45,469 nucleotides of DNA, taken from UHGV virus genome UHGV-0206691; one strand, given 5' to 3'. Position numbers and translations under genes: made by a program. Positions 3,238-45,433 of this stretch are shown here, piece by piece (position 1 is the stretch's first letter; the number at the start of each line of letters is the position of its first letter). The notes under the pieces are model-generated. The model saw nothing but the letters and a program-made list of their open reading frames with translations. It searched no databases and had not been told where the DNA came from. Source of the stretch: a virus.

Positions 3238-3271
3238 AACCCTAACTCCTCTGTCTCGTTCCGATAAGTGA

Positions 3272-3300
3272 ATAGTATCCTATTATGTTGGGGTGTGCAA
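3272..3300 (-). promoter_or_regulatory. early promoter, TTGCAC-N17-TACTAT class
   Basis: minus strand reads cTTGCACaccccaacataataggaTACTATtcactta; near-identical to the promoters at 26855, 36202 and 38070. Confidence 0.55.
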
Positions 3301-3746
3301 GAGATTCATTGAAAATGGTTACGTTGCCGTTGTGGATTCTTTCGTTTCTTGGAAGAGTACGCAACGCAGTGGGTGGGCGTTAGCCCACCCCAGCGGAGTG
3401 AAGTACTCTCAACAATGCTCACGGCAACTATAGAAACTTTTAATTATCAGATACTTAAGAGATATGCTGCCGATGAGAATAGAGCTTGCCCATGGCAACC
3501 GGAGATACTAAGGAAGGAAAGTTACGATAATTCATATGTTCAGTAATCTGCCGCTTAACACTTCGCTTGCGCTTTGGCGCAGCTGCGTTTCAAGCGGGTA
3601 TTACAAGGTGAACAGGAATCAAAGTAACTAAGATATAGAAGCACCTTAAACGAAGATTTTCATAATGTCAATAGGTGCAATTATGTTTGATTTCCCATTA
3701 TTCGCAATGTATGCTTGGTTCGTTAACTGATAATGAGGGTTTGAGA

Positions 3747-3917
3747 ATGACGCAGAATGAAGTAGCGGAGCGTATCGGGGTTACTCGCCGCACACTGAAT
3801 AACTGGTTAAAGAGTGGGAAGTTCCCGGATTGCTGTATTCGCATTATGGGCCGCCGTCAGCCAGGTACGTTTGACCCGGCGAAAGTGGAAGCGTGGATTA
3901 AGGAGAACGTGAAATGA
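3747..3917 (+). CDS. AlpA/excisionase-like HTH DNA-binding protein
   Basis: ORF track 3675..3917 trimmed to ATG (MTQNEVAERIGVTRRTLNNWLKSGKFP) with GAGGG upstream; HTH_17-like pattern. Confidence 0.55.
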   Translation: MTQNEVAERIGVTRRTLNNWLKSGKFPDCCIRIMGRRQPGTFDPAKVEAWIKENVK

Positions 3918-7012: not shown

Positions 7013-7076
7013 GTCAATTACTCCTTAGTCAGTTGATATGTGAATAGTACCATATTAATTATTTTAGAAAAGCCCA

Positions 7077-7105
7077 TTGACATGTGAATAGTTCGCTATT
7101 ATAGT
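7077..7105 (+). promoter_or_regulatory. sigma70-type promoter TTGACA-N17-TATAGT with AATAG-N4-CTATT inverted repeat in spacer
   Basis: ttgacaTGTGAATAGTTCGCTATtatagt, 31 nt upstream of gene 7137 with GAGAGGAGAG RBS. Confidence 0.6.
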
Positions 7106-26748: not shown

Positions 26749-26854
26749 TCTTTAATCCTTTGGTTAAGAGGTTACTGGTTAAGATGGACGCGCCAGACGG
26801 GAACCACCCGCTTTTCGTGTGCGACACTAGGCGCAAACTTATTCTAGCACACTA

Positions 26855-26883
26855 CTTGCGCGCCCCAATATAATAGGGTACTA
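26855..26883 (+). promoter_or_regulatory. early-class promoter TTGCGC-N17-TACTAT driving accessory cassette
   Basis: cTTGCGCgccccaatataatagggTACTATtcactta; matches promoters at 3272 (minus), 36202 and 38070. Confidence 0.55.
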
Positions 26884-26914
26884 TTCACTTACACCAACAA
26901 TGAAGGGGTTTAAA

Positions 26915-31709: not shown

Positions 31710-32222
31710 TTAACCCCGGTACACGTTAAACGAGAAGCCATTGTTAAGACCGCCACACAGTAACGGGCGTAAGGCGTCGTCCGCAGCGGTAATCGCGGTT
31801 GTAGCACCACTGTTGCCGTTGTTGAAGTATGTCACTGTTACTGCGCCCTCAACACGCTCAGTCTGCACGGAACGCCCGTCAGAGTTGGCCCGCACTTCCG
31901 TGCCTGCGCCATATGTGGCGGAGGCGATTACCTGCGCAAGAATCACCTGTTTTGGGATAACGTTGTTAGCTATCGGGAACCCATTCAACGTTACACCAGT
32001 GCGAGGGTACGCCAGAGACTGTTCAGCGGATACGCGACGGCCGCACATCTGCGGCTCTGCCAGTCCGACATAAGTAGCACCATTGCGCAAGGCAACCTCT
32101 GCGGCGGTATCATCCACGGGCAACTCCAGCCCATAATTAGCCGCTAACGCGCGGGCGTCAGCCAGACTAATGTAACTGTCAGCGCCGGGTACTATTGACC
32201 CATCTTCCACGATTAGCGGCAT
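31710..32222 (-). CDS. head-tail adaptor-like protein
   Basis: ORF track; N-terminus MPLIVEDGSIVPGADSYISLADARALA typical of gp6-like adaptors. Confidence 0.5.
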   Translation of the reverse strand: MPLIVEDGSIVPGADSYISLADARALAANYGLELPVDDTAAEVALRNGATYVGLAEPQMCGRRVSAEQSLAYPRTGVTLNGFPIANNVIPKQVILAQVIASATYGAGTEVRANSDGRSVQTERVEGAVTVTYFNNGNSGATTAITAADDALRPLLCGGLNNGFSFNVYRG

Positions 32223-32225
32223 AAA

Positions 32226-32405
32226 CTATTCCTCTGACTTACGGCGATGACGCTTAGTACCACCGCCGTTGTTGTGCGCTTCTTCGTTGTCCGGTTGAGT
32301 CGCAACCAGTTCATCCGCTTCTACCACACCGCGAACAGGCATTACCTGACCGTCAACAATATCAACGTGGGTGTACTTTTCGCGGATTACGTAATTATCT
32401 ACCAT
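32226..32405 (-). CDS. small hypothetical protein (59 aa)
   Basis: own reading MVDNYVIREKYTHVDIVDGQVMPVRGVVEADELVATQPDNEEAHNNGGGTKRHRRKSEE. Confidence 0.3.
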   Translation of the reverse strand: MVDNYVIREKYTHVDIVDGQVMPVRGVVEADELVATQPDNEEAHNNGGGTKRHRRKSEE

Positions 32406-33492: not shown

Positions 33493-33551
33493 AATTTACC
33501 TCTTAGTAAATGAAAAGAGGGACCGAAGTCCCTCTCGATTATAGCTTAACC

Positions 33552-34601
33552 TTAAGCCCCTACACCAGTTACCAGGAAGGCAATCGGTACGTGCTTACGC
33601 TCAACAACGCGGTTCCAGTTGGAGGCGTTCGCCAGGTCCTGCCATGAAGCAGAGCGGGCGATAGTCTCAGTGCCGTTGCCAGTGATTACTGCACTGGTGA
33701 AGCTGTAGCCCAGTGGGTGCAGCAACCAGGTCTTACGGGTCCACAGGGTTTCAACACCACCGCCGTTAGCGCGAGACGCTTCACGTTCGTATTCCAGCGG
33801 GTTGGACGGGCTGCCTTCACCATAACCGATAGCGCCGTTGCCGAAGATGATGGAGATGAACTTACGGCTCGGGCCAGTACCGACTACGGTCATGCTGTCG
33901 TCAACAATCACGCGGTAGCCCTGGTAGGTGGCGAACATGGTGTTGTTGTCAGCGTCTTTGATGAAGTCGATAAGCTGCTGCTTACGTGCCTGCGCATATA
34001 CGAAGCTATGCATCGCGATAGCGCCCAGCACTTCACCACCGTTGCCCATCAGCGCATCACCCATAGTCTGGGTAGCGTCGATGAACGCGCCTGCATCGAA
34101 GCCCAGAGTAGCGGACACGTCTACAACCATGTCATTCTGCTCGTGGTAAGCGTCGGTAGCGGCTACGTTGTCGTTATACAGACCGAGGGCGGTTGCAATC
34201 AGACGGCGTTGTGCCTGGCGCTGCCAGAAGTTATCAAGACGAGACGCTACGGATTGCAGCGGGTTCTGACTGGTCAGTTCTACCGTCAGGTCAGCTTGGC
34301 CGAAACCTTCGTTCAGATACGCAACGCGCGCCATCATCTCGCCAGTCTGGACATTACGCGGGGTCGCGATGTCCTGGTATACGTCATTCGAGTAGTTAGG
34401 CTCGATAGAGGTATCAATCGCTTTCCAGAACGGAATATTAGCGACGTTGGACGGGCCGCGGGCAATCTCGGCAGCGTATGGAGTCGGGGTCAGAATACCG
34501 GACTGGAAGAACGCGGTTTTTTCTACCGGGTCCTCTGTCATGTAAGACGCCAGGACCGGGATGTTGCCAGTTACGATATCGCCGATAGTGGTAATTGCCA
34601 T
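33552..34601 (-). CDS. major capsid protein
   Basis: ORF track; 349 aa, directly downstream of scaffold gene. Confidence 0.75.
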   Translation of the reverse strand: MAITTIGDIVTGNIPVLASYMTEDPVEKTAFFQSGILTPTPYAAEIARGPSNVANIPFWKAIDTSIEPNYSNDVYQDIATPRNVQTGEMMARVAYLNEGFGQADLTVELTSQNPLQSVASRLDNFWQRQAQRRLIATALGLYNDNVAATDAYHEQNDMVVDVSATLGFDAGAFIDATQTMGDALMGNGGEVLGAIAMHSFVYAQARKQQLIDFIKDADNNTMFATYQGYRVIVDDSMTVVGTGPSRKFISIIFGNGAIGYGEGSPSNPLEYEREASRANGGGVETLWTRKTWLLHPLGYSFTSAVITGNGTETIARSASWQDLANASNWNRVVERKHVPIAFLVTGVGA

Positions 34602-34603
34602 TA

Positions 34604-35305
34604 TTATTTCCTCAGGGCTTTAAGTTGCCGTTCAAATTCGGCAGGGTTCGATTTATACAGGGCTAGACGCTCTGCTTCACTCATGTCTTTAAACGCTGGT
34701 GCGGCCCCGCCGCCTTTGCTACCGGAAGCCCCGCCGCCGGAAGCTGCATTTGCTTTAATCAAATGCGAAAATGCTTTGTGTTCACGCAGGTATTTGCGGA
34801 ACTGTTCCGGGTCAGTCGTGATTACATTGCCATCTGCGCCAACAAACTTAGTAACCACATCATCGCCTTCGAACTCAGTCTTAACGAACGGAGCCAGAAT
34901 GTCCACTGCTTCCGGGGTAATAAAGTCACCCGCGAAAGAGCCTAACACCGCTTTACGCTCGCTGCCGAGGATGCGCTCTGCCATTTTGGAGATGCGACCA
35001 TCTTTCTCGGCTAACACCGGGTCATACTGGCTACGAATCGTTTTTTCGAACTCGTCCATCTTACCAGCGGCTTTTAATGCCTCCTGGTGCGCGCGCTGCC
35101 GTTCTTCTTCTGCCTCTTTTGCTTTACGGGCGGCTTCTTTCTTCTCCGCCAGCAATACTTCCTGATTGGCCTTAAGCCCGGCAACTTCTTTCTCAATCAG
35201 CGCCTGAACTTCTTCAGCGGTGAACATTTTTGGCGCGTCACCGCCACCGGATTTATCTTCTGCCCCAGCTTCTTCCTGGAACGGATAACGTAAAAAACGA
35301 TTCAT
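34604..35305 (-). CDS. scaffolding protein
   Basis: ORF track 34604..35359 trimmed to ATG (MNRFLRYPF) after AGGGGACA; charged coiled-coil; precedes capsid gene. Confidence 0.6.
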   Translation of the reverse strand: MNRFLRYPFQEEAGAEDKSGGGDAPKMFTAEEVQALIEKEVAGLKANQEVLLAEKKEAARKAKEAEEERQRAHQEALKAAGKMDEFEKTIRSQYDPVLAEKDGRISKMAERILGSERKAVLGSFAGDFITPEAVDILAPFVKTEFEGDDVVTKFVGADGNVITTDPEQFRKYLREHKAFSHLIKANAASGGGASGSKGGGAAPAFKDMSEAERLALYKSNPAEFERQLKALRK

Positions 35306-35387
35306 AGTCAGTATGTCCCCTGGACGTTGGAATCCGGGCCACCCGGATTTACATGTCAAGAATAAATTATTCCAACATGCAAGGCAA

Positions 35388-35651
35388 CTATTCCAGAATA
35401 TTCCTCACGTAATCCTGCAACATAAACACTTTTAGTCTTAGTTGCCGTACACATTCTGCGTTCTGAACGTCGACAGCTAAGTCCTCGTCCGCGTCACTGC
35501 TTGGCATTGCCAGTTTGCACGGCGGCTGCATCATCGTCGTATCCGGGGATGGAATTGGCGTTGGCAACGGCGCGGGACTTGAGCAGGACGCGAGCATCAT
35601 CGAAAGTGCACACGCTGCGACCAGGCGTTTTAATGTACTTAACGACTTCAC
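35388..35651 (-). CDS. Rz1: o-spanin (Rz1-like outer-membrane lipoprotein)
   Basis: ORF track; signal peptide plus lipobox LASC then Pro-rich SSPAPLPTPIPSPD; starts inside Rz in a different frame. Confidence 0.7.
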   Translation of the reverse strand: MKSLSTLKRLVAACALSMMLASCSSPAPLPTPIPSPDTTMMQPPCKLAMPSSDADEDLAVDVQNAECVRQLRLKVFMLQDYVRNILE

Positions 35652-35883
35652 GGGTAATTACCTCCGATTTCGTCTTGCCTTCGTTGTCAGCGGCTGCGGC
35701 CTTTGATTCGTCCTGCTGCTGCCGTTGTGTTTTCTTCGCTAACTCAGCCTGTGCTTTCTGCTGTTGCTGCGAAACGAGATTCGCCCGGCCTTCGTTCCAG
35801 CCGCTGCGGTATTGAAAGTAGCCGTGTGCGTATAACAGGATGATGAAACATGCTCCCGCTACGACAGTTGCTTTAAGATTCAT
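35494..35883 (-). CDS. Rz: i-spanin (Rz-like)
   Basis: ORF track; N-terminal TM (VVAGACFIILLYAHGYF) then Gln/Ala-rich coiled-coil; GAGAAAGGAGAAAC RBS. Confidence 0.75.
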   Translation of the reverse strand: MNLKATVVAGACFIILLYAHGYFQYRSGWNEGRANLVSQQQQKAQAELAKKTQRQQQDESKAAAADNEGKTKSEVITREVVKYIKTPGRSVCTFDDARVLLKSRAVANANSIPGYDDDAAAVQTGNAKQ

Positions 35884-35906
35884 GTTTCTCCTTTCTCGAT
35901 AAGTAA

Positions 35907-35928
35907 AGCCCCGCCATAAAGCGGGGCG
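35907..35928 (-). terminator. hairpin in leader upstream of spanin genes
   Basis: AGCCCCGCcataaaGCGGGGCG; T-rich tract follows on minus strand. Confidence 0.4.
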
Positions 35929-36201
35929 CTAGTCCTTATCATTTAAACATAGAAACGGCGTAATCTCAGTAAACCAGTTACTTTTTACACAAGCAATAGA
36001 CTATGGCCCTTCCGAACGCGTCAGCGTAACTACACTCAGGACTTACGTCCCGCTCCGTTACCTGCCCGCGCCGCGGTCGCTTGTTCATACTTCACAAGCT
36101 CAGGTGAGCTTAGCACATTTTCAGTGAAAAGTCAACTATTCGAATAGTTTATTCCGACATTTACAATTGAGCGGAATACCTGGAATACGTAAATAAATAG
36201 T

Positions 36202-36230
36202 TTGCAGACACCAATATAATAGGGTACTAT
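36202..36230 (+). promoter_or_regulatory. early-class promoter TTGCAG-N17-TACTAT
   Basis: tTTGCAGacaccaatataatagggTACTATtcagttaa; 36-nt core identical to copy at 38070. Confidence 0.55.
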
Positions 36231-36258
36231 TCAGTTAACTTAAACAGGAGGTGTTACT

Positions 36259-36492
36259 ATGGGTGCGTACAAACATTCTATAAACTGGAAAGGTAGACGT
36301 GGCTTAGCTGTTCTCGAAGGGGGTGTTTCAGGCCCACACGCGTTTGGGTGGTGGCTAGTTCCATCATATTCAAACAAACATGGCGGGCAGGACTACGACT
36401 GGAATAACGCCATACCTACTAGATTCAAAACAAAGAAAGCCGCGTTGGACGCGCGTAAAGAGTTAAGAAAAGGGGGACTATTTTTACAGTAA
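36259..36492 (+). CDS. hypothetical accessory protein (77 aa)
   Basis: ORF track; CAGGAGGTG RBS; own promoter and terminator; antisense to head module. Confidence 0.5.
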   Translation: MGAYKHSINWKGRRGLAVLEGGVSGPHAFGWWLVPSYSNKHGGQDYDWNNAIPTRFKTKKAALDARKELRKGGLFLQ

Positions 36493-36497
36493 AAATA

Positions 36498-36516
36498 AGG
36501 CCCCTTAAAGGGGCCC
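36498..36516. terminator. bidirectional hairpin terminator
   Basis: AGGCCCCttaaaGGGGCCCT after stop of 36259..36492. Confidence 0.55.
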
Positions 36517-36520
36517 TCTA

Positions 36521-36982
36521 TCATTCTGGCTTAATAACCTTCGCCGCTTTACTGACAGCCTCTACACCATCGGCATCAGTAACTTTAACGAAGTATTCGC
36601 CTGCTGCGTTAACCGTCAGAGACAAGACCTCTTCAGGGGCGTTTACCACTTCCTTTCCGTCTTTGTACCAGGTCAGCGCATACGGTGCTTTGCCCGCCTT
36701 AACTTCGACAGTGATGATTGCGCTACCGTCTGCCAGTTCAGTGTCTTTCGGTTGCACAGAGAAATACACGTCGCCAGCATCAGCCAGATACGGAATCTCA
36801 TAGAGCATGCCCGCTGCAGGCAGGGCAATACCGGTCTTGTCTGCAAACGGCATAACGTCTACAGGTGCACCCAGTACACTTTCGTCTTCAATAAACACCA
36901 CGTTCTCGCCAGAGCCAGACACACGGGCGTACTGAACAACACGACGCGACGGCACATCAGTTACTTTAAAAAAGCCCATCAT
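36521..36982 (-). CDS. Ig-like domain protein (possible capsid decoration)
   Basis: ORF track; YALTWYKDGKEV...GEYFVKVTDADG I-set-like pattern. Confidence 0.5.
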   Translation of the reverse strand: MMGFFKVTDVPSRRVVQYARVSGSGENVVFIEDESVLGAPVDVMPFADKTGIALPAAGMLYEIPYLADAGDVYFSVQPKDTELADGSAIITVEVKAGKAPYALTWYKDGKEVVNAPEEVLSLTVNAAGEYFVKVTDADGVEAVSKAAKVIKPE

Positions 36983-38025
36983 TATTCCCCTTTCAGATAA
37001 TCAGCAACACGTTTATCGAGTTCCGCCATCTGCTTAAGCGTGAGCGGATTCCCGAAACCATCTACAGATATTACGCGAAACTCTTCCGGCGATATACCGC
37101 TGTTACGGAAAATCTTACCTCGCACCGGGCCGAGAGCCTGGTCCTGAAACCATGCAGGTTGTTGTTTCAGGAACTCATAATAAGTGGTGTCTGCGCTTAC
37201 CTGAGTGCCGCCTTCTGCACCCTTAGCTGCTCGTTTTGCACCTTTATCGAGGAAGTCGAATTCTGAACTTATTACAGGCGCAGTGGTACTCCTGCAATTA
37301 GGATGTGCGGGCGGCATCGGCCCTTTACCAATTTCCCACGTCATCCCGTCTCTGGCTCTGCAAATCGTACTGGTACGGCTGTCCAGCGTTGACACCCATT
37401 CGTATTTCTCGATAATGTCGTCGTTCTGGCGGTATGTCTCGTTACGGGCTTCGTTGGATACATGGGACAGCGCGGTGCGGATTACCGTAGCAGCGTTACG
37501 TTCAGAGATGTCCGCCAGTCCGCCAGCACCCACGACATTCTTAACAATCTGCCGTGTCGTCTGGCCTTGTACGAAACCCATCTTAACACCTGTTACCAGG
37601 CGCGATACTTCGGTTTCACCCCAGCTGGGCATCAGCTTAGTGAAATCGACAGGCTTGTCACTTAGTGCCAGAGGCTGAAACTCGGCGGCGGCCCACACCT
37701 GTTCGGCGGTGGGCGTAACAAATTCCGCGCCTACGTTGGCGGTCAGTGTCTTTACGTTCCACTCGGCCTCATACGCTGCCAGCTCCTTAAGGTCTTCTGT
37801 CAGCTTTGTCTGCCAGTCACCTGTAAGTCCTGTCAGTGCTTCTTCCAGGTCTCGTAACAGTTTATTCAGTCGCGCAGTGCTACGACCATCGTCGCCAAAT
37901 AGCAGCACCTGCCGTTTTATTTCGTCCCGCATTTCCTGAATGAATGGTGTGAAGTCTTTCACTTCACCGGACGCGGCGCGTTGCAGCCATATCTGGTGGC
38001 TGATTATGGATGTCAGTAAGCTCAT
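36982..38025 (-). CDS. head morphogenesis protein (Mu F / SPP1 gp7 family)
   Basis: ORF track 36982..38082 trimmed to ATG (MSLLTSII) after AGGAGGG; conserved STICRARDG ... HPNCRST. Confidence 0.8.
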   Translation of the reverse strand: MSLLTSIISHQIWLQRAASGEVKDFTPFIQEMRDEIKRQVLLFGDDGRSTARLNKLLRDLEEALTGLTGDWQTKLTEDLKELAAYEAEWNVKTLTANVGAEFVTPTAEQVWAAAEFQPLALSDKPVDFTKLMPSWGETEVSRLVTGVKMGFVQGQTTRQIVKNVVGAGGLADISERNAATVIRTALSHVSNEARNETYRQNDDIIEKYEWVSTLDSRTSTICRARDGMTWEIGKGPMPPAHPNCRSTTAPVISSEFDFLDKGAKRAAKGAEGGTQVSADTTYYEFLKQQPAWFQDQALGPVRGKIFRNSGISPEEFRVISVDGFGNPLTLKQMAELDKRVADYLKGE

Positions 38026-38069
38026 ATGCCCTCCTATAGTATCGCCAGTGTAACGCATAAAAATAATAT

Positions 38070-38098
38070 TTGCAGACACCAATATAATAGGGTACTAT
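38070..38098 (+). promoter_or_regulatory. early-class promoter TTGCAG-N17-TACTAT
   Basis: tTTGCAGacaccaatataatagggTACTATtcagttaa. Confidence 0.55.
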
Positions 38099-38129
38099 TC
38101 AGTTAAACGACAAAGAGGAGGAAGAAAAC

Positions 38130-38459
38130 ATGATTAATGCTAAAGAAGAGTTGCTCGCCCATCTGGATGGTAAAGATGTAGTTAAATGCGCCTGGTTTGC
38201 AGACTATGATGCGGATGACGCGGATTACGGTTTCGTTGAGGGGAGTAAATGGCTCCTGCGGGAGAATTACTCCCGCGGAGAATGGGAAAGCCTAATGGCC
38301 GCACTTGATTTTGAATACCACGACGGTTACGGCAGTCAAAACTTCTTCGGGGTAATTTGGTACGAAGATGGTACATGGTCTTCTCGCGGAGAATACGATG
38401 GTTCTGAATGGTGGGAATATAATGCCGTGCCGGATGTGCCGGAAGAACTTAAGCGCTAA
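38130..38459 (+). CDS. hypothetical acidic Trp/Tyr-rich accessory protein (109 aa)
   Basis: ORF track; AGAGGAGG RBS; own promoter and terminator; antisense to head module. Confidence 0.5.
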   Translation: MINAKEELLAHLDGKDVVKCAWFADYDADDADYGFVEGSKWLLRENYSRGEWESLMAALDFEYHDGYGSQNFFGVIWYEDGTWSSRGEYDGSEWWEYNAVPDVPEELKR

Positions 38460-38463
38460 AATT

Positions 38464-38487
38464 AAGGCCCCTTTAGGGGCCTTTTCT
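38464..38487. terminator. bidirectional hairpin terminator
   Basis: AAGGCCCCtttaGGGGCCTTTTcttatt. Confidence 0.6.
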
Positions 38488-44228: not shown

Positions 44229-44257
44229 AATATAATAGGGTCGATGGTAATAGTCAA
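44229..44257 (-). promoter_or_regulatory. sigma70-type promoter TTGACT-N17-TATATT
   Basis: minus strand TTGACTattaccatcgaccctatTATATT, about 35 nt upstream of gene 43983..44195. Confidence 0.55.
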
Positions 44258-44375: not shown

Positions 44376-44882
44376 TCAACCTTTCACCGCGCGCCCGATA
44401 GCCTCTGCCTCCTGCCACGGTTTACCGTCGAACAGTGCCAGGCGACCAGCTACGCGGCGGCGCAGGCCCAGAACTGGCTCGAGTTTACCGGTTTTAGGGT
44501 TGCGCTGGTTAATGAACTGACTCATCTTGTGCCGTAGAGTAGGGATGTCGCCCTGCCGTAGCGCCTTACCCGTGCCTGTAGTAGATGCAATCACACCAGC
44601 ACCTGCGTTGTAGACCAGGTCGCAAACAGCGTCGAACTGCGCCTGTGTCAATGAATGGTGCGCTGCTGCATCAACCGCGGCTACGGCTTTAGCCATATCA
44701 CGATTCAGTAACAGGAGGCCTTGCCCGGGCGTGATGGTCTTGCCCGGGGTTACGTCCGGCCCATAGTGCCCGTAGCCTATAGTCAGGTACTTTTCGTTCG
44801 GCGTAGCGCGATACGCAGTACCACGGAATCCCTCGAACGCGGCGGTGAAATGCAGCCCATTATCTGAAATGTTTCGAGACAC
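44376..44882 (-). CDS. endolysin, phage lysozyme (GH24, P22 gp19-like)
   Basis: ORF track 44376..44933 trimmed to GTG after GGAGGG; FEGFRGTAYRATPNEKYLTIGYGHYG and LTQAQFDAVCDLVYNAG resemble P22-type lysozyme. Confidence 0.85.
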   Translation of the reverse strand: MSRNISDNGLHFTAAFEGFRGTAYRATPNEKYLTIGYGHYGPDVTPGKTITPGQGLLLLNRDMAKAVAAVDAAAHHSLTQAQFDAVCDLVYNAGAGVIASTTGTGKALRQGDIPTLRHKMSQFINQRNPKTGKLEPVLGLRRRVAGRLALFDGKPWQEAEAIGRAVKG

Positions 44883-45132
44883 GCTTATGCCCTCCGTACG
44901 ACAGCCACGCCTGGCGAATCTGGCGCAGCGCAACTAATGTGATTAATGTCTCAGGCAGCGTAGGTGACATGCTGCCCTGTAACAGATGAATACATCCGGC
45001 GGCGCAGACAATAGCAGTCAGGATGTAGAGCACCCGGCCAAATAATCCGTCATCAACGCTGGGATGGTACACATTAAACAGCGATGCGCCTCCGATTGCC
45101 AGCATACCGCCGAACCAGAATAACTCATTCAT
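44860..45132 (-). CDS. lysis-cassette membrane protein (holin or antiholin, 2 TM)
   Basis: ORF track 44860..45312 trimmed to ATG (MNELFWFGGMLAIGG) after GAGGAGG; overlaps holin stop and endolysin start. Confidence 0.5.
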   Translation of the reverse strand: MNELFWFGGMLAIGGASLFNVYHPSVDDGLFGRVLYILTAIVCAAGCIHLLQGSMSPTLPETLITLVALRQIRQAWLSYGGHKRVSKHFR

Positions 45133-45433
45133 CTGAGCCTCCTCGACGTGCGATGTATTCTCCTGCGACGATACCGGAGAGACGGGAATAAATAGGCATC
45201 CAGAGAATAGCGATAATGAAGCCCAGGCCTGCGATTTCACGGTCGCCCGTGATACCGAACCATTGAGCTGCGAGAGGTGCGCCAAATACGGCGCAGGTGA
45301 AGCCGGTTGCAATAAAGCAGAAGCCGTCGATGGGGCCAGAAATAACGGACTTATGTTGCCTTAGCCCGATTACCCCTCCGGCTAGTGCGGCAGCGAGAAG
45401 CCACCCCGTCACTGTTTCAGTAAATTTATCCAA
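45125..45433 (-). CDS. holin (about 3 TM segments)
   Basis: ORF track; TTG start after GGAGGA; hydrophobic segments LLAAALAGGVIGL, FCFIATGFTCAVFGAPLAA, GLGFIIAILWMPIY; charged C-terminus; first gene of lysis cassette. Confidence 0.6.
   Translation of the reverse strand: MDKFTETVTGWLLAAALAGGVIGLRQHKSVISGPIDGFCFIATGFTCAVFGAPLAAQWFGITGDREIAGLGFIIAILWMPIYSRLSGIVAGEYIARRGGSDE

Follow-up and report, generated by a model that had tools for sequence, protein, structure and literature searches.

The viral sequence UHGV-0206691 (45,469 nt, the whole of which is called the window here) carries its spanin genes Rz and Rz1 on the minus strand, away from the holin and endolysin genes, and in front of Rz lies a gap of 375 bp (35884-36258). 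What does this gap contain, and which genes does it serve? A sequence-only reading had described a gap of about 320 bp free of open reading frames (ORFs) and had proposed that spanin expression may be attenuated or regulated separately. The gap is present, although it is larger than first described and holds a 36-aa ORF (35978..36088, minus strand), and the features that had been listed for it were found again at the same positions or within 1-2 nt. Comparison with related phages indicates that the gap is a predicted promoter followed by a conserved structured RNA of about 215 nt (approximately 36100..35884, minus strand). This leader is not specific to the spanins, since it heads Rz/Rz1, scaffold, major capsid and onward, and a framing restricted to the spanins is too narrow. 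By sequence, the window belongs with the Kagunavirus-like (Guernseyvirinae) genomes. Over the 1.3 kb surrounding the gap, it is 93-95% identical to the Kagunavirus E. coli siphoviruses fEg-Eco06, K1H, and BASEL Bas70-74, 327 phage records match this 1.3-kb region in a nucleotide search, and the length and gene content of the window are those of a complete genome, as seen from its ORF map and the annotation of relatives.

The structure of the RNA was derived from RNAalifold applied to each clade (a Kagunavirus type and a Jersey type) and from single-sequence folds, and the corresponding covariance model, R1, has 224 positions and 74 pairs. MAFFT alignments of both clades misalign P1 and the inner stems, and a model-based alignment together with single folds was used instead. 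A long-range pairing between the 5' end and the Shine-Dalgarno region, proposed by RNAalifold on the raw alignment, was attributed to misalignment and rejected. In the resulting model, the leader begins with a 5' core of about 145 nt (36100..35957, minus strand) comprising P1 to P7. P1 is a hairpin (36099-36094 with 36084-36079) that begins 1-3 nt after the predicted transcription start. It is followed by P2-P4, a 24-bp irregular hairpin (36076-36012) with the base CCG[C]GGNGCG...CGCNUUCGG, a conserved GRA/GUA internal loop, and an apical stem (36051-36047 with 36042-36038) closed by a GUAA loop. The conserved CGGAAGGGCC (36014-36005) provides the junction CGG-AA-GGGCC, and the P5-P7 domain (36008-35957), which includes UAUUGC, completes the core. 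The rest of the leader is a single long hairpin, P8.

Base-pair-preserving changes across relatives bear out the earlier suggestion that the leader is structured. Pair statistics were computed on an alignment (A5) of 38 distinct sequences fitted to R1, in which 96.5% of the pair cells are standard pairs, compared with 38-48% when the partners are slid by 1-3 columns. Changes on both sides occur in 38 of the 74 pairs (190 cells), and none of 500 column shuffles reached the observed values. The third pair of P2b, for instance, is found as C-G (17), U-A (15), or A-U (4), and the apical stem exists in the versions GGGAC/GUCCU, GGUGC/GCACU, CCGGAC/GUCCG, GUGCC/GGCAC, CACGU/ACGUG, and GGGCGY/RCGCCC. 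All 24 distinct P2-P4 variants adopted the same architecture when folded singly, and the first 96 nt of the core, from P1 to the junction, gave a shuffle z of -2.6. The model contains many conserved G-U pairs, indicating that the minus strand, in the sense of Rz, is the RNA strand. R1 recognizes the leader of the window over its full length (277 bits, E 1e-73), a sequence that is itself part of the R1 seed alignment, and it scores independent Jersey-type and early-locus copies at 59-97 bits. Members of the RNA family were defined by matching R1 from end to end, with helices that covary, after a promoter of the form TTGAC(T)-17-TGnTA(A/C)GCT, and the leader of the window belongs to it.

The element is carried by about 450 sequenced E. 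coli and Salmonella phage genomes (181 Kagunavirus-type and 269 Jersey-type records), which include K1-capsule phages, BASEL Bas70-74, and many Salmonella biocontrol phages. When the leader alone was used in blastn, 181 records were retrieved, 180 of them at 95-99.6% identity, while the 1.3-kb region including the leader is mostly 80-95% identical. In four aligned relatives, the stretch from the promoter to the Rz start is almost invariant and the opposite-strand ORF is swapped for unrelated genes. As judged by these alignments, the leader is conserved beyond its flanking genes. Jersey-type Salmonella phages, whose Rz protein is only 60-66% identical, keep alignable blocks in the leader, namely ACCGCGG.GCGG, UUCGGAAGGGCC, UAUUGCUU, AGAUU(A)CGCCGU, the hairpin, and the Shine-Dalgarno region. 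Pattern scans of viral contigs, bacterial genomes, and metagenomes, each followed by a search with R1, gave real matches only on Guernseyvirinae-like contigs, typically of 41-45 kb where complete, and for the bacterial genomes this result holds among the matches listed. All other pattern matches were rejected as chance hits, mostly in GC-rich genomes.

No catalogued RNA accounts for the leader. Rfam 15 gave no match over the whole window at gathering thresholds and only chance-level matches over 35700-36400 at E<=10, and ARAGORN found no tRNA or tmRNA genes in the window. The best sub-threshold Rfam match, the wcaG RNA (RF01761; 17.5 bits, 35915-36005, minus strand), was rejected as chance, with a gathering score of 42 for this family, an E of 1.1 in a 701-nt search, and several non-canonical pairs. 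In the literature, we found no paper describing an RNA at the gap before Rz.

The main argument for action in cis comes from the part of the leader closest to Rz. P8 is a predicted hairpin of 73 nt and 27 bp (35956..35884, minus strand) with a terminator-like tip and a base that lies on the Rz ribosome-binding region, and the Rz start codon abuts its last base. At its apex, 35927-35920 pair with 35915-35908 (8 pairs, 7 of them G-C), followed by UUUACUUAU. The terminator scan likewise reported this minus-strand stem (35927..35908, then TTTACTTATC), which corresponds to the GC hairpin previously noticed at about 35907-35928. In the middle of P8, UGAUAAG pairs with CUUAUCG, which is the "U-tract" itself, and UUU pairs with AAA of the Shine-Dalgarno region. 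At the base, the partner of GUUUCU (35956-35951) is AGAAAC (35889-35884), which fills the six positions (-6 to -1) from the Shine-Dalgarno sequence to the Rz AUG. The hairpin folds at -28.4 kcal/mol (z = -4.7), and none of 200 shuffles folds as well. Between Kagunavirus and Jersey, compensatory differences are seen both in the middle (GAUAAG/CUUAUC versus UAUACG/CGUAUA) and at the base (GUUUCU/AGAAAC versus GUAU/AUAC). The base helix can form only in read-through RNA and yet it covaries, indicating that the functional molecule would include the leader fused to the Rz message, as expected for a cis-acting leader. As for termination, the tail of the P8 apex in the window, UUUACUUAUC, passes a simple terminator scan, the Jersey type has UUAGCGUAU at this place, and the early-locus copies have no U-tract after the hairpin. 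In these comparisons, the "terminator" is the least conserved property of P8. The proposal that spanin expression is attenuated or separately regulated is retained in part: the hairpin may attenuate transcription and its base is predicted to occlude the Rz ribosome-binding site, but the control would not be specific to the spanins.

Transcription of the leader very probably begins at a promoter of its own. Where the leftward TTGACT-N17-TAAGCT promoter had been proposed, the minus strand has a predicted sigma-70 promoter with extended -10 (36135..36107), made up of the -35 TTGACT at 36135..36130, a 17-bp spacer, TG at 36115..36114 (-15/-14), and the -10 TAAGCT at 36112..36107. Its geometry would place the transcription start at about 36101-36100. 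A generic promoter scan did not list it, the -10 matching the consensus at 3 of 6 positions. Nearly all Kagunavirus-type copies retain the two hexamers and the TG, with a variable 17-bp spacer, and Jersey-type phages have (T/A)GACT-N17-TGT-TACGCT at the same place, with a different spacer. Upstream, an intrinsic terminator (36517..36497, minus strand), a 9-pair stem followed by ATTTTTACTG, closes the transcript of the Hoc-like gene as well as an opposite-strand 77-aa ORF and is predicted to isolate the leader promoter from upstream transcription. This terminator and the conserved hexamers and TG together suggest that the leader is transcribed as a separate unit. Where relatives lack the inserted ORF, the terminator is directly followed by a block TATTCCAGTTATTCC...TGTAAAT...GGAATA-N3-TATTC and then by the promoter. 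At the homologous places, the GenBank record of PVP-SE2 independently annotates a Rho-independent terminator, which follows the decoration gene, and a promoter prediction, while the leader RNA is labeled a hypothetical protein.

Repeated DNA motifs lie at the promoter and upstream of it. The perfect 16-bp palindrome AACTATTCGAATAGTT (36134-36149), found again as described and occurring once in the window, is centered at about -41.5 from the predicted start and is present in the Kagunavirus type only. About 0.7 perfect 16-bp palindromes are expected by chance per 45 kb, so that the weight is carried by conservation and position. It overlaps a second palindrome, GGAATAAACTATTC (36142-36155, center at about -48), both being operator-like, and only the GAATA-N3-TATTC part of this region is common to the Jersey type. 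GGAATA-N3-TATTC occurs exactly at two sites of the window, the leader promoter and 35360-35373 in the gap between Rz1 and the scaffold gene. With at most one mismatch, 7 strand-wise matches are found in the window against 0.64 expected, a number reached by none of 100 shuffles. A third such site (32218-32232, one mismatch) was judged coincidental, as it overlaps a junction of stop codon, Shine-Dalgarno sequence, and start codon. Further upstream, a block of TATTCC/GGAATA half-sites (36150..36188) contains the inverted repeat TATTCCG (36150-36156)/CGGAATA (36172-36178) and a second GGAATA (36182-36187). It is conserved in the Kagunavirus and Jersey types, with or without the inserted ORF, and presumably consists of protein-binding sites. 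Paired changes of the repeat are seen in relatives (TATTCCA/TGGAATA, TATTCT/AGAATA, TATTCCT/AGGAATA), along with mismatching variants, and complementarity seems to be favored despite a position upstream of the predicted start. Altogether, the GGAATA/TATTC sites point to a dimeric DNA-binding regulator. The HTH_17 protein (3675..3917) is the only recognizable candidate regulator in the window, and a link between it and these sites is speculative. In the Rz1-scaffold gap, the second exact site, GGAATAATTTATTC (35373..35360, minus strand), abuts a TTGACA and is followed by the hairpin AAUCCGGG-UGG-CCCGGAUU (35349..35331, the elements together spanning 35373..35331). This hairpin is strong and has no U-tract, and no good -10 follows the TTGACA. 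Candidate roles for these elements are an operator, a looping partner, or an RNA element.

The leader is not tied to one place in these genomes. In many Kagunavirus contigs, a second, divergent, full-length R1 match (59-97 bits) lies about 10-13 kb upstream, whereas the window itself has one R1 copy only. In L116 and L175, the second copy is located in the early control region, divergent from a gene for a helix-turn-helix (Xis/AlpA-like) protein. The promoter ahead of it (TTGACTTTTAC...TGCTAAGCT) is almost identical to that of the leader before Rz, and downstream come a different, non-terminator long hairpin closed by GUUUCU/AGAAAC, a repeated motif of the phage promoter kind, and finally the first of the early genes. 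The parts shared by both loci indicate that the duplicated unit is the promoter plus the 5' core. At the corresponding place, the window has an early-operon leader (about 3670..3240, minus strand) with a TTGACA-17-TAAGGT promoter and a different structured RNA, conserved in phage Jersey. This RNA forms a predicted 146-nt hairpin (-49 kcal/mol, z = -6.4), and then a hairpin (3437..3344) closed, like P8, by GUUUCU/AGAAAC. In many Kagunaviruses, the 5' part of the early-leader RNA is replaced by a copy of the core.

Which genes would the leader at the window's gap control? Rz (35494..35883, minus strand) matches PHROG 2536, "Rz-like spanin" (E 1e-55), and has a hydrophobic N-terminus, as expected for an i-spanin. 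Rz1 (35388..35651, minus strand) matches PHROGs 5672 and 1267, also "Rz-like spanin", and its translation shows the signal sequence and lipobox L-A-S-C (...MMLASC...) of an o-spanin. Rz1 starts inside Rz in the +1 frame and ends 106 nt beyond it. The homology and N-terminus of the former and the lipobox and frame of the latter identify a two-component spanin of overlapped architecture. PHROG profiles also place the endolysin at 44376..44933 and two holins at 44860..45433, and the coordinates agree with the distance of about 8.5 kb between spanins and holin/endolysin cassette in the sequence-only reading. This layout is already annotated in Kagunavirus and Jerseyvirus genomes, and by the same annotation the separation of the spanins is ordinary for the whole subfamily. 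From the gene order and from the lack of any other recognizable promoter, we infer an operon that runs from Rz/Rz1 through the scaffold gene (34604..35305, minus strand; PHROG profile, start placed after the annotation of relatives) to the major capsid gene (33552..34601, minus strand), the next one in the unit headed by the leader, with a terminator-like hairpin (33536..33515, minus strand) after it.

Taken together, we give about an even chance to a reading in which the gap is a promoter plus a cis-acting 5' leader that serves as a gate, for transcription as well as translation, to Rz/Rz1, scaffold, and capsid. In this scheme, host RNA polymerase with sigma-70 would start at TTGACT-17-(TG)TAAGCT, at about 36100, as suggested by the motif and its conservation, and the promoter would probably be modulated by a protein on the GGAATA/TATTC sites. 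The first 145 nt or so would fold into the covariation-supported 5'-end hairpin, 24-bp irregular hairpin, CGGAAGGGCC junction, and multi-hairpin domain. In the next 73 nt, the GC-rich tip of P8 with UUUACUUAU would stop a fraction of the polymerases, freeing an RNA of about 200 nt. In read-through RNA, the base of P8 would pair with the six bases before the Rz AUG and with part of the Shine-Dalgarno sequence, and P8 would thus keep Rz translation low until the hairpin is opened or cut. The 5' core is hypothesized to be the effector, acting in cis on its own polymerase or binding a phage or host factor, and to set passage through P8 and later hairpins. The logic would be that of the lambda PR'-6S RNA-tR' leader or of HK022 put.

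In lambda, the late leader consists of the PR' promoter, the 194-nt 6S RNA, and the tR' terminator, followed by the lysis and morphogenesis operon. The predicted arrangement here is similar, with a sigma-70 promoter, an untranslated RNA of about 200 nt, and a terminator hairpin ahead of lysis and structural genes, and as in lambda a short RNA would arise whenever the promoter fires. The differences are several. Among the 81 annotated genes of Bas74 and the 75 features of Jersey there is no Q-like product, as far as annotation goes. A conserved functional -10-like pause element is absent, since the Kagunavirus TGAGCT lacks the key A at position 2 and only Jersey repeats TACGCT. The terminator is weak here, and the RNA fold itself is under selection. 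We know of no comparable structural conservation of lambda 6S RNA.

Several points weigh against this reading. The start, the termination at P8, and the read-through are predictions. Phages of the Kagunavirus type have a weak U-tract and those of the Jersey type a poor one, and attenuation by intrinsic termination may therefore be minor, with termination at best partial and not a conserved property. Since A5 was fitted to the model, the pair counts lean toward the model, which the independent single-sequence folds offset only partly. No N- or Q-like antiterminator is annotated in the full gene list of a relative, a list in which many small ORFs have no assignment, and no conserved alternative (antiterminator) pairing was found. 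The one transcriptome paper found for a close relative, phage K1B4, gives temporal classes at the gene level only and nothing on intergenic RNA. Finally, R1 run with filters off on the HK022 PL and PR regions gave 6 bits at best, and the put sequences show no similarity to the leader.

This last result bears on a bolder version of the cis-acting leader. The put sites of HK022 (putL and putR) are two-stem, promoter-proximal RNAs at the heads of two operons (PMC9378689). The leader resembles them as a promoter-proximal, cis-encoded RNA with a short and a long irregular stem and non-canonical G-A pairs, and also by its two copies after two promoters heading long operons with hairpins or terminators, in sister phages at least, the window having one copy. 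However, put measures about 70 nt and the core about 145 nt. In the bolder version, Guernseyvirinae might control their early and capsid operons by an exchangeable, promoter-linked RNA module, with the core of about 145 nt acting on polymerase directly, as a protein-independent put-like element against pausing or termination, or via a factor. We regard this generalization as unlikely, and put-like direct action of the core on polymerase as equally doubtful. If it is true, E. coli and Salmonella phages would possess a second family of RNA-based processive regulators, unrelated to the first.

The sequence-only reading had added that the leader could encode a small RNA. A conserved structured RNA is there in substance, but we favor a cis-acting leader over a free molecule. 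A trans-acting RNA of about 200 nt, made between the promoter and the P8 terminator, would act on host or phage targets or sequester a host protein, read-through into Rz being incidental. This would agree with the leader's own promoter and terminator-like hairpin, with the very high sequence conservation, which includes the unpaired CGGAAGGGCC and UAUUGC, and with the second copy elsewhere in many genomes. It nonetheless appears rather unlikely, the U-tract being weak and, in the Jersey type, very poor, and lacking altogether after the hairpin of the early-locus copies. In addition, the covarying base helix of P8 uses bases past the putative 3' end, and no target was identified.

Somewhat more doubtful is a role limited to processing and stability, where P1 would be a 5' protective hairpin and P2-P4 and/or P8 would be RNase III sites, cleavage of P8 freeing the Rz ribosome-binding site and leaving stable ends. 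RNase III sites occur in the early and late mRNAs of T7 and in the lambda N leader. In length and in the style of their internal loops, P2-P4 (24 bp) and P8 (27 bp) are like RNase III substrates, P1 lies almost at the predicted 5' end as such a cap would, and at the early locus the place of the core before a P8-like hairpin can be taken by a different, very long hairpin RNA (the one with z = -6.4). As with the RNase III leader hairpins of T7, long irregular hairpins stand just ahead of the first gene of the unit, with the ribosome-binding site in the lower stem, and the replication module is T7-like according to the annotation of a relative. However, the conserved 5' core has no T7 counterpart, RNase III cleavage would hold here by analogy, and cleavage or stability alone does not explain why the sequences of the internal loop and the junction are so strictly conserved between clades.

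A riboswitch-like aptamer sensing a ligand or factor is improbable. A conserved core before a variable downstream hairpin, at the heads of two operons, is indeed the usual layout of an aptamer with different expression platforms. On the other hand, there is no covarying multi-helix junction pocket or pseudoknot, the terminal loops vary, and no Rfam riboswitch matches. Candidate pairings of the P4/P2 arms with the P8 arms, sought by eye, do not covary (in L007, P4 is changed and its supposed partner is not). Finally, a small protein gene is most improbable, as the 36-aa ORF (35978..36088), although a "hypothetical protein" coding sequence (CDS) in several GenBank records, has no PHROG or other family match and no usable Shine-Dalgarno spacing, is cut to 9 or 17 aa, frameshifted, or without a start codon in 15 of the 39 distinct leaders, all 8 Jersey-type ones among them, and has substitutions that track base pairing and not codons. 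Small "hypothetical proteins" of 36, 39, and 63 aa are annotated inside the leader RNA in differing frames and positions, in L184 (phage Jersey, 7265-7456), L001 and L002 (2179-2289), and L351 (469-588), and such CDS calls are probably spurious.

The surroundings of the gap add some observations. The minus-strand genes run from holins/endolysin through small genes, terminase, portal, head morphogenesis, and Hoc-like decoration to Rz/Rz1, scaffold, major capsid, and the tail. The upstream neighbor of the gap is the Hoc-like decoration gene (36521..36982, PHROG profile), preceded by the head-morphogenesis gene (36982..38082), which is of normal length. In fEg-Eco06, the closest relative, this "minor head" gene is annotated with an inserted intein (L001, 3154-4270). 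Between the gap and the Hoc-like gene lies the 77-aa ORF (36259..36492), on the strand opposite to Rz and without family match. This ORF and another one of 109 aa (38130..38459), also on the opposite strand, each have their own promoter motif and terminator, and look like gene cassettes (morons) inserted between head genes, in the regions 36201-36520 and 38069-38483. At the site of the first, relatives have unrelated ORFs or none (phage Ivi, for one, encodes a "beta clamp domain" protein of 173 aa there), which suggests an insertion hot spot.

A repeated motif TTTGCAGACACCAATATAATAGGGTACTATTCAGTTAA, of up to 38 nt, is located about 20-35 nt ahead of the start codons of early genes and inserted cassettes (copies at 36201-36238, 38069-38106, 26865-26887, 3269-3300, 7041-7057, 7085-7103, and 44229-44241). 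Its hexamer spacing is unusual, with either TTGCAG-17-TACTAT or a perfect TATAAT without -35. In phage Golestan, "phage-specific promoters" were reported by PHIRE (PMC7203180), and the motif probably corresponds to these. The block of tail genes (26748 downward) is preceded by TGTGCTAGAAT, which has an extended -10 and shares TGTGCTA with the leader promoter (26750-26860, minus strand). Next comes a GC-rich leader with a hairpin, about 95 nt long and unrelated to the leader RNA before Rz.

We conclude from the comparative evidence that the leader is a new, well-supported structured RNA family, predicted to stand at the head of the capsid operon and, in many of the related phages, of the early operon too, in a large set of coliphages and Salmonella phages that is of practical importance. 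It has so far been unannotated or mis-annotated as a small "hypothetical protein", and annotation would gain from removing the spurious ORFs and adding a noncoding RNA or leader feature together with the covariance model. The leader probably sets the timing or the level of virion production. For late-gene regulation in this subfamily, where no N- or Q-like protein is annotated, a covariation-supported RNA at the heads of two operons would provide a concrete, mutable handle.

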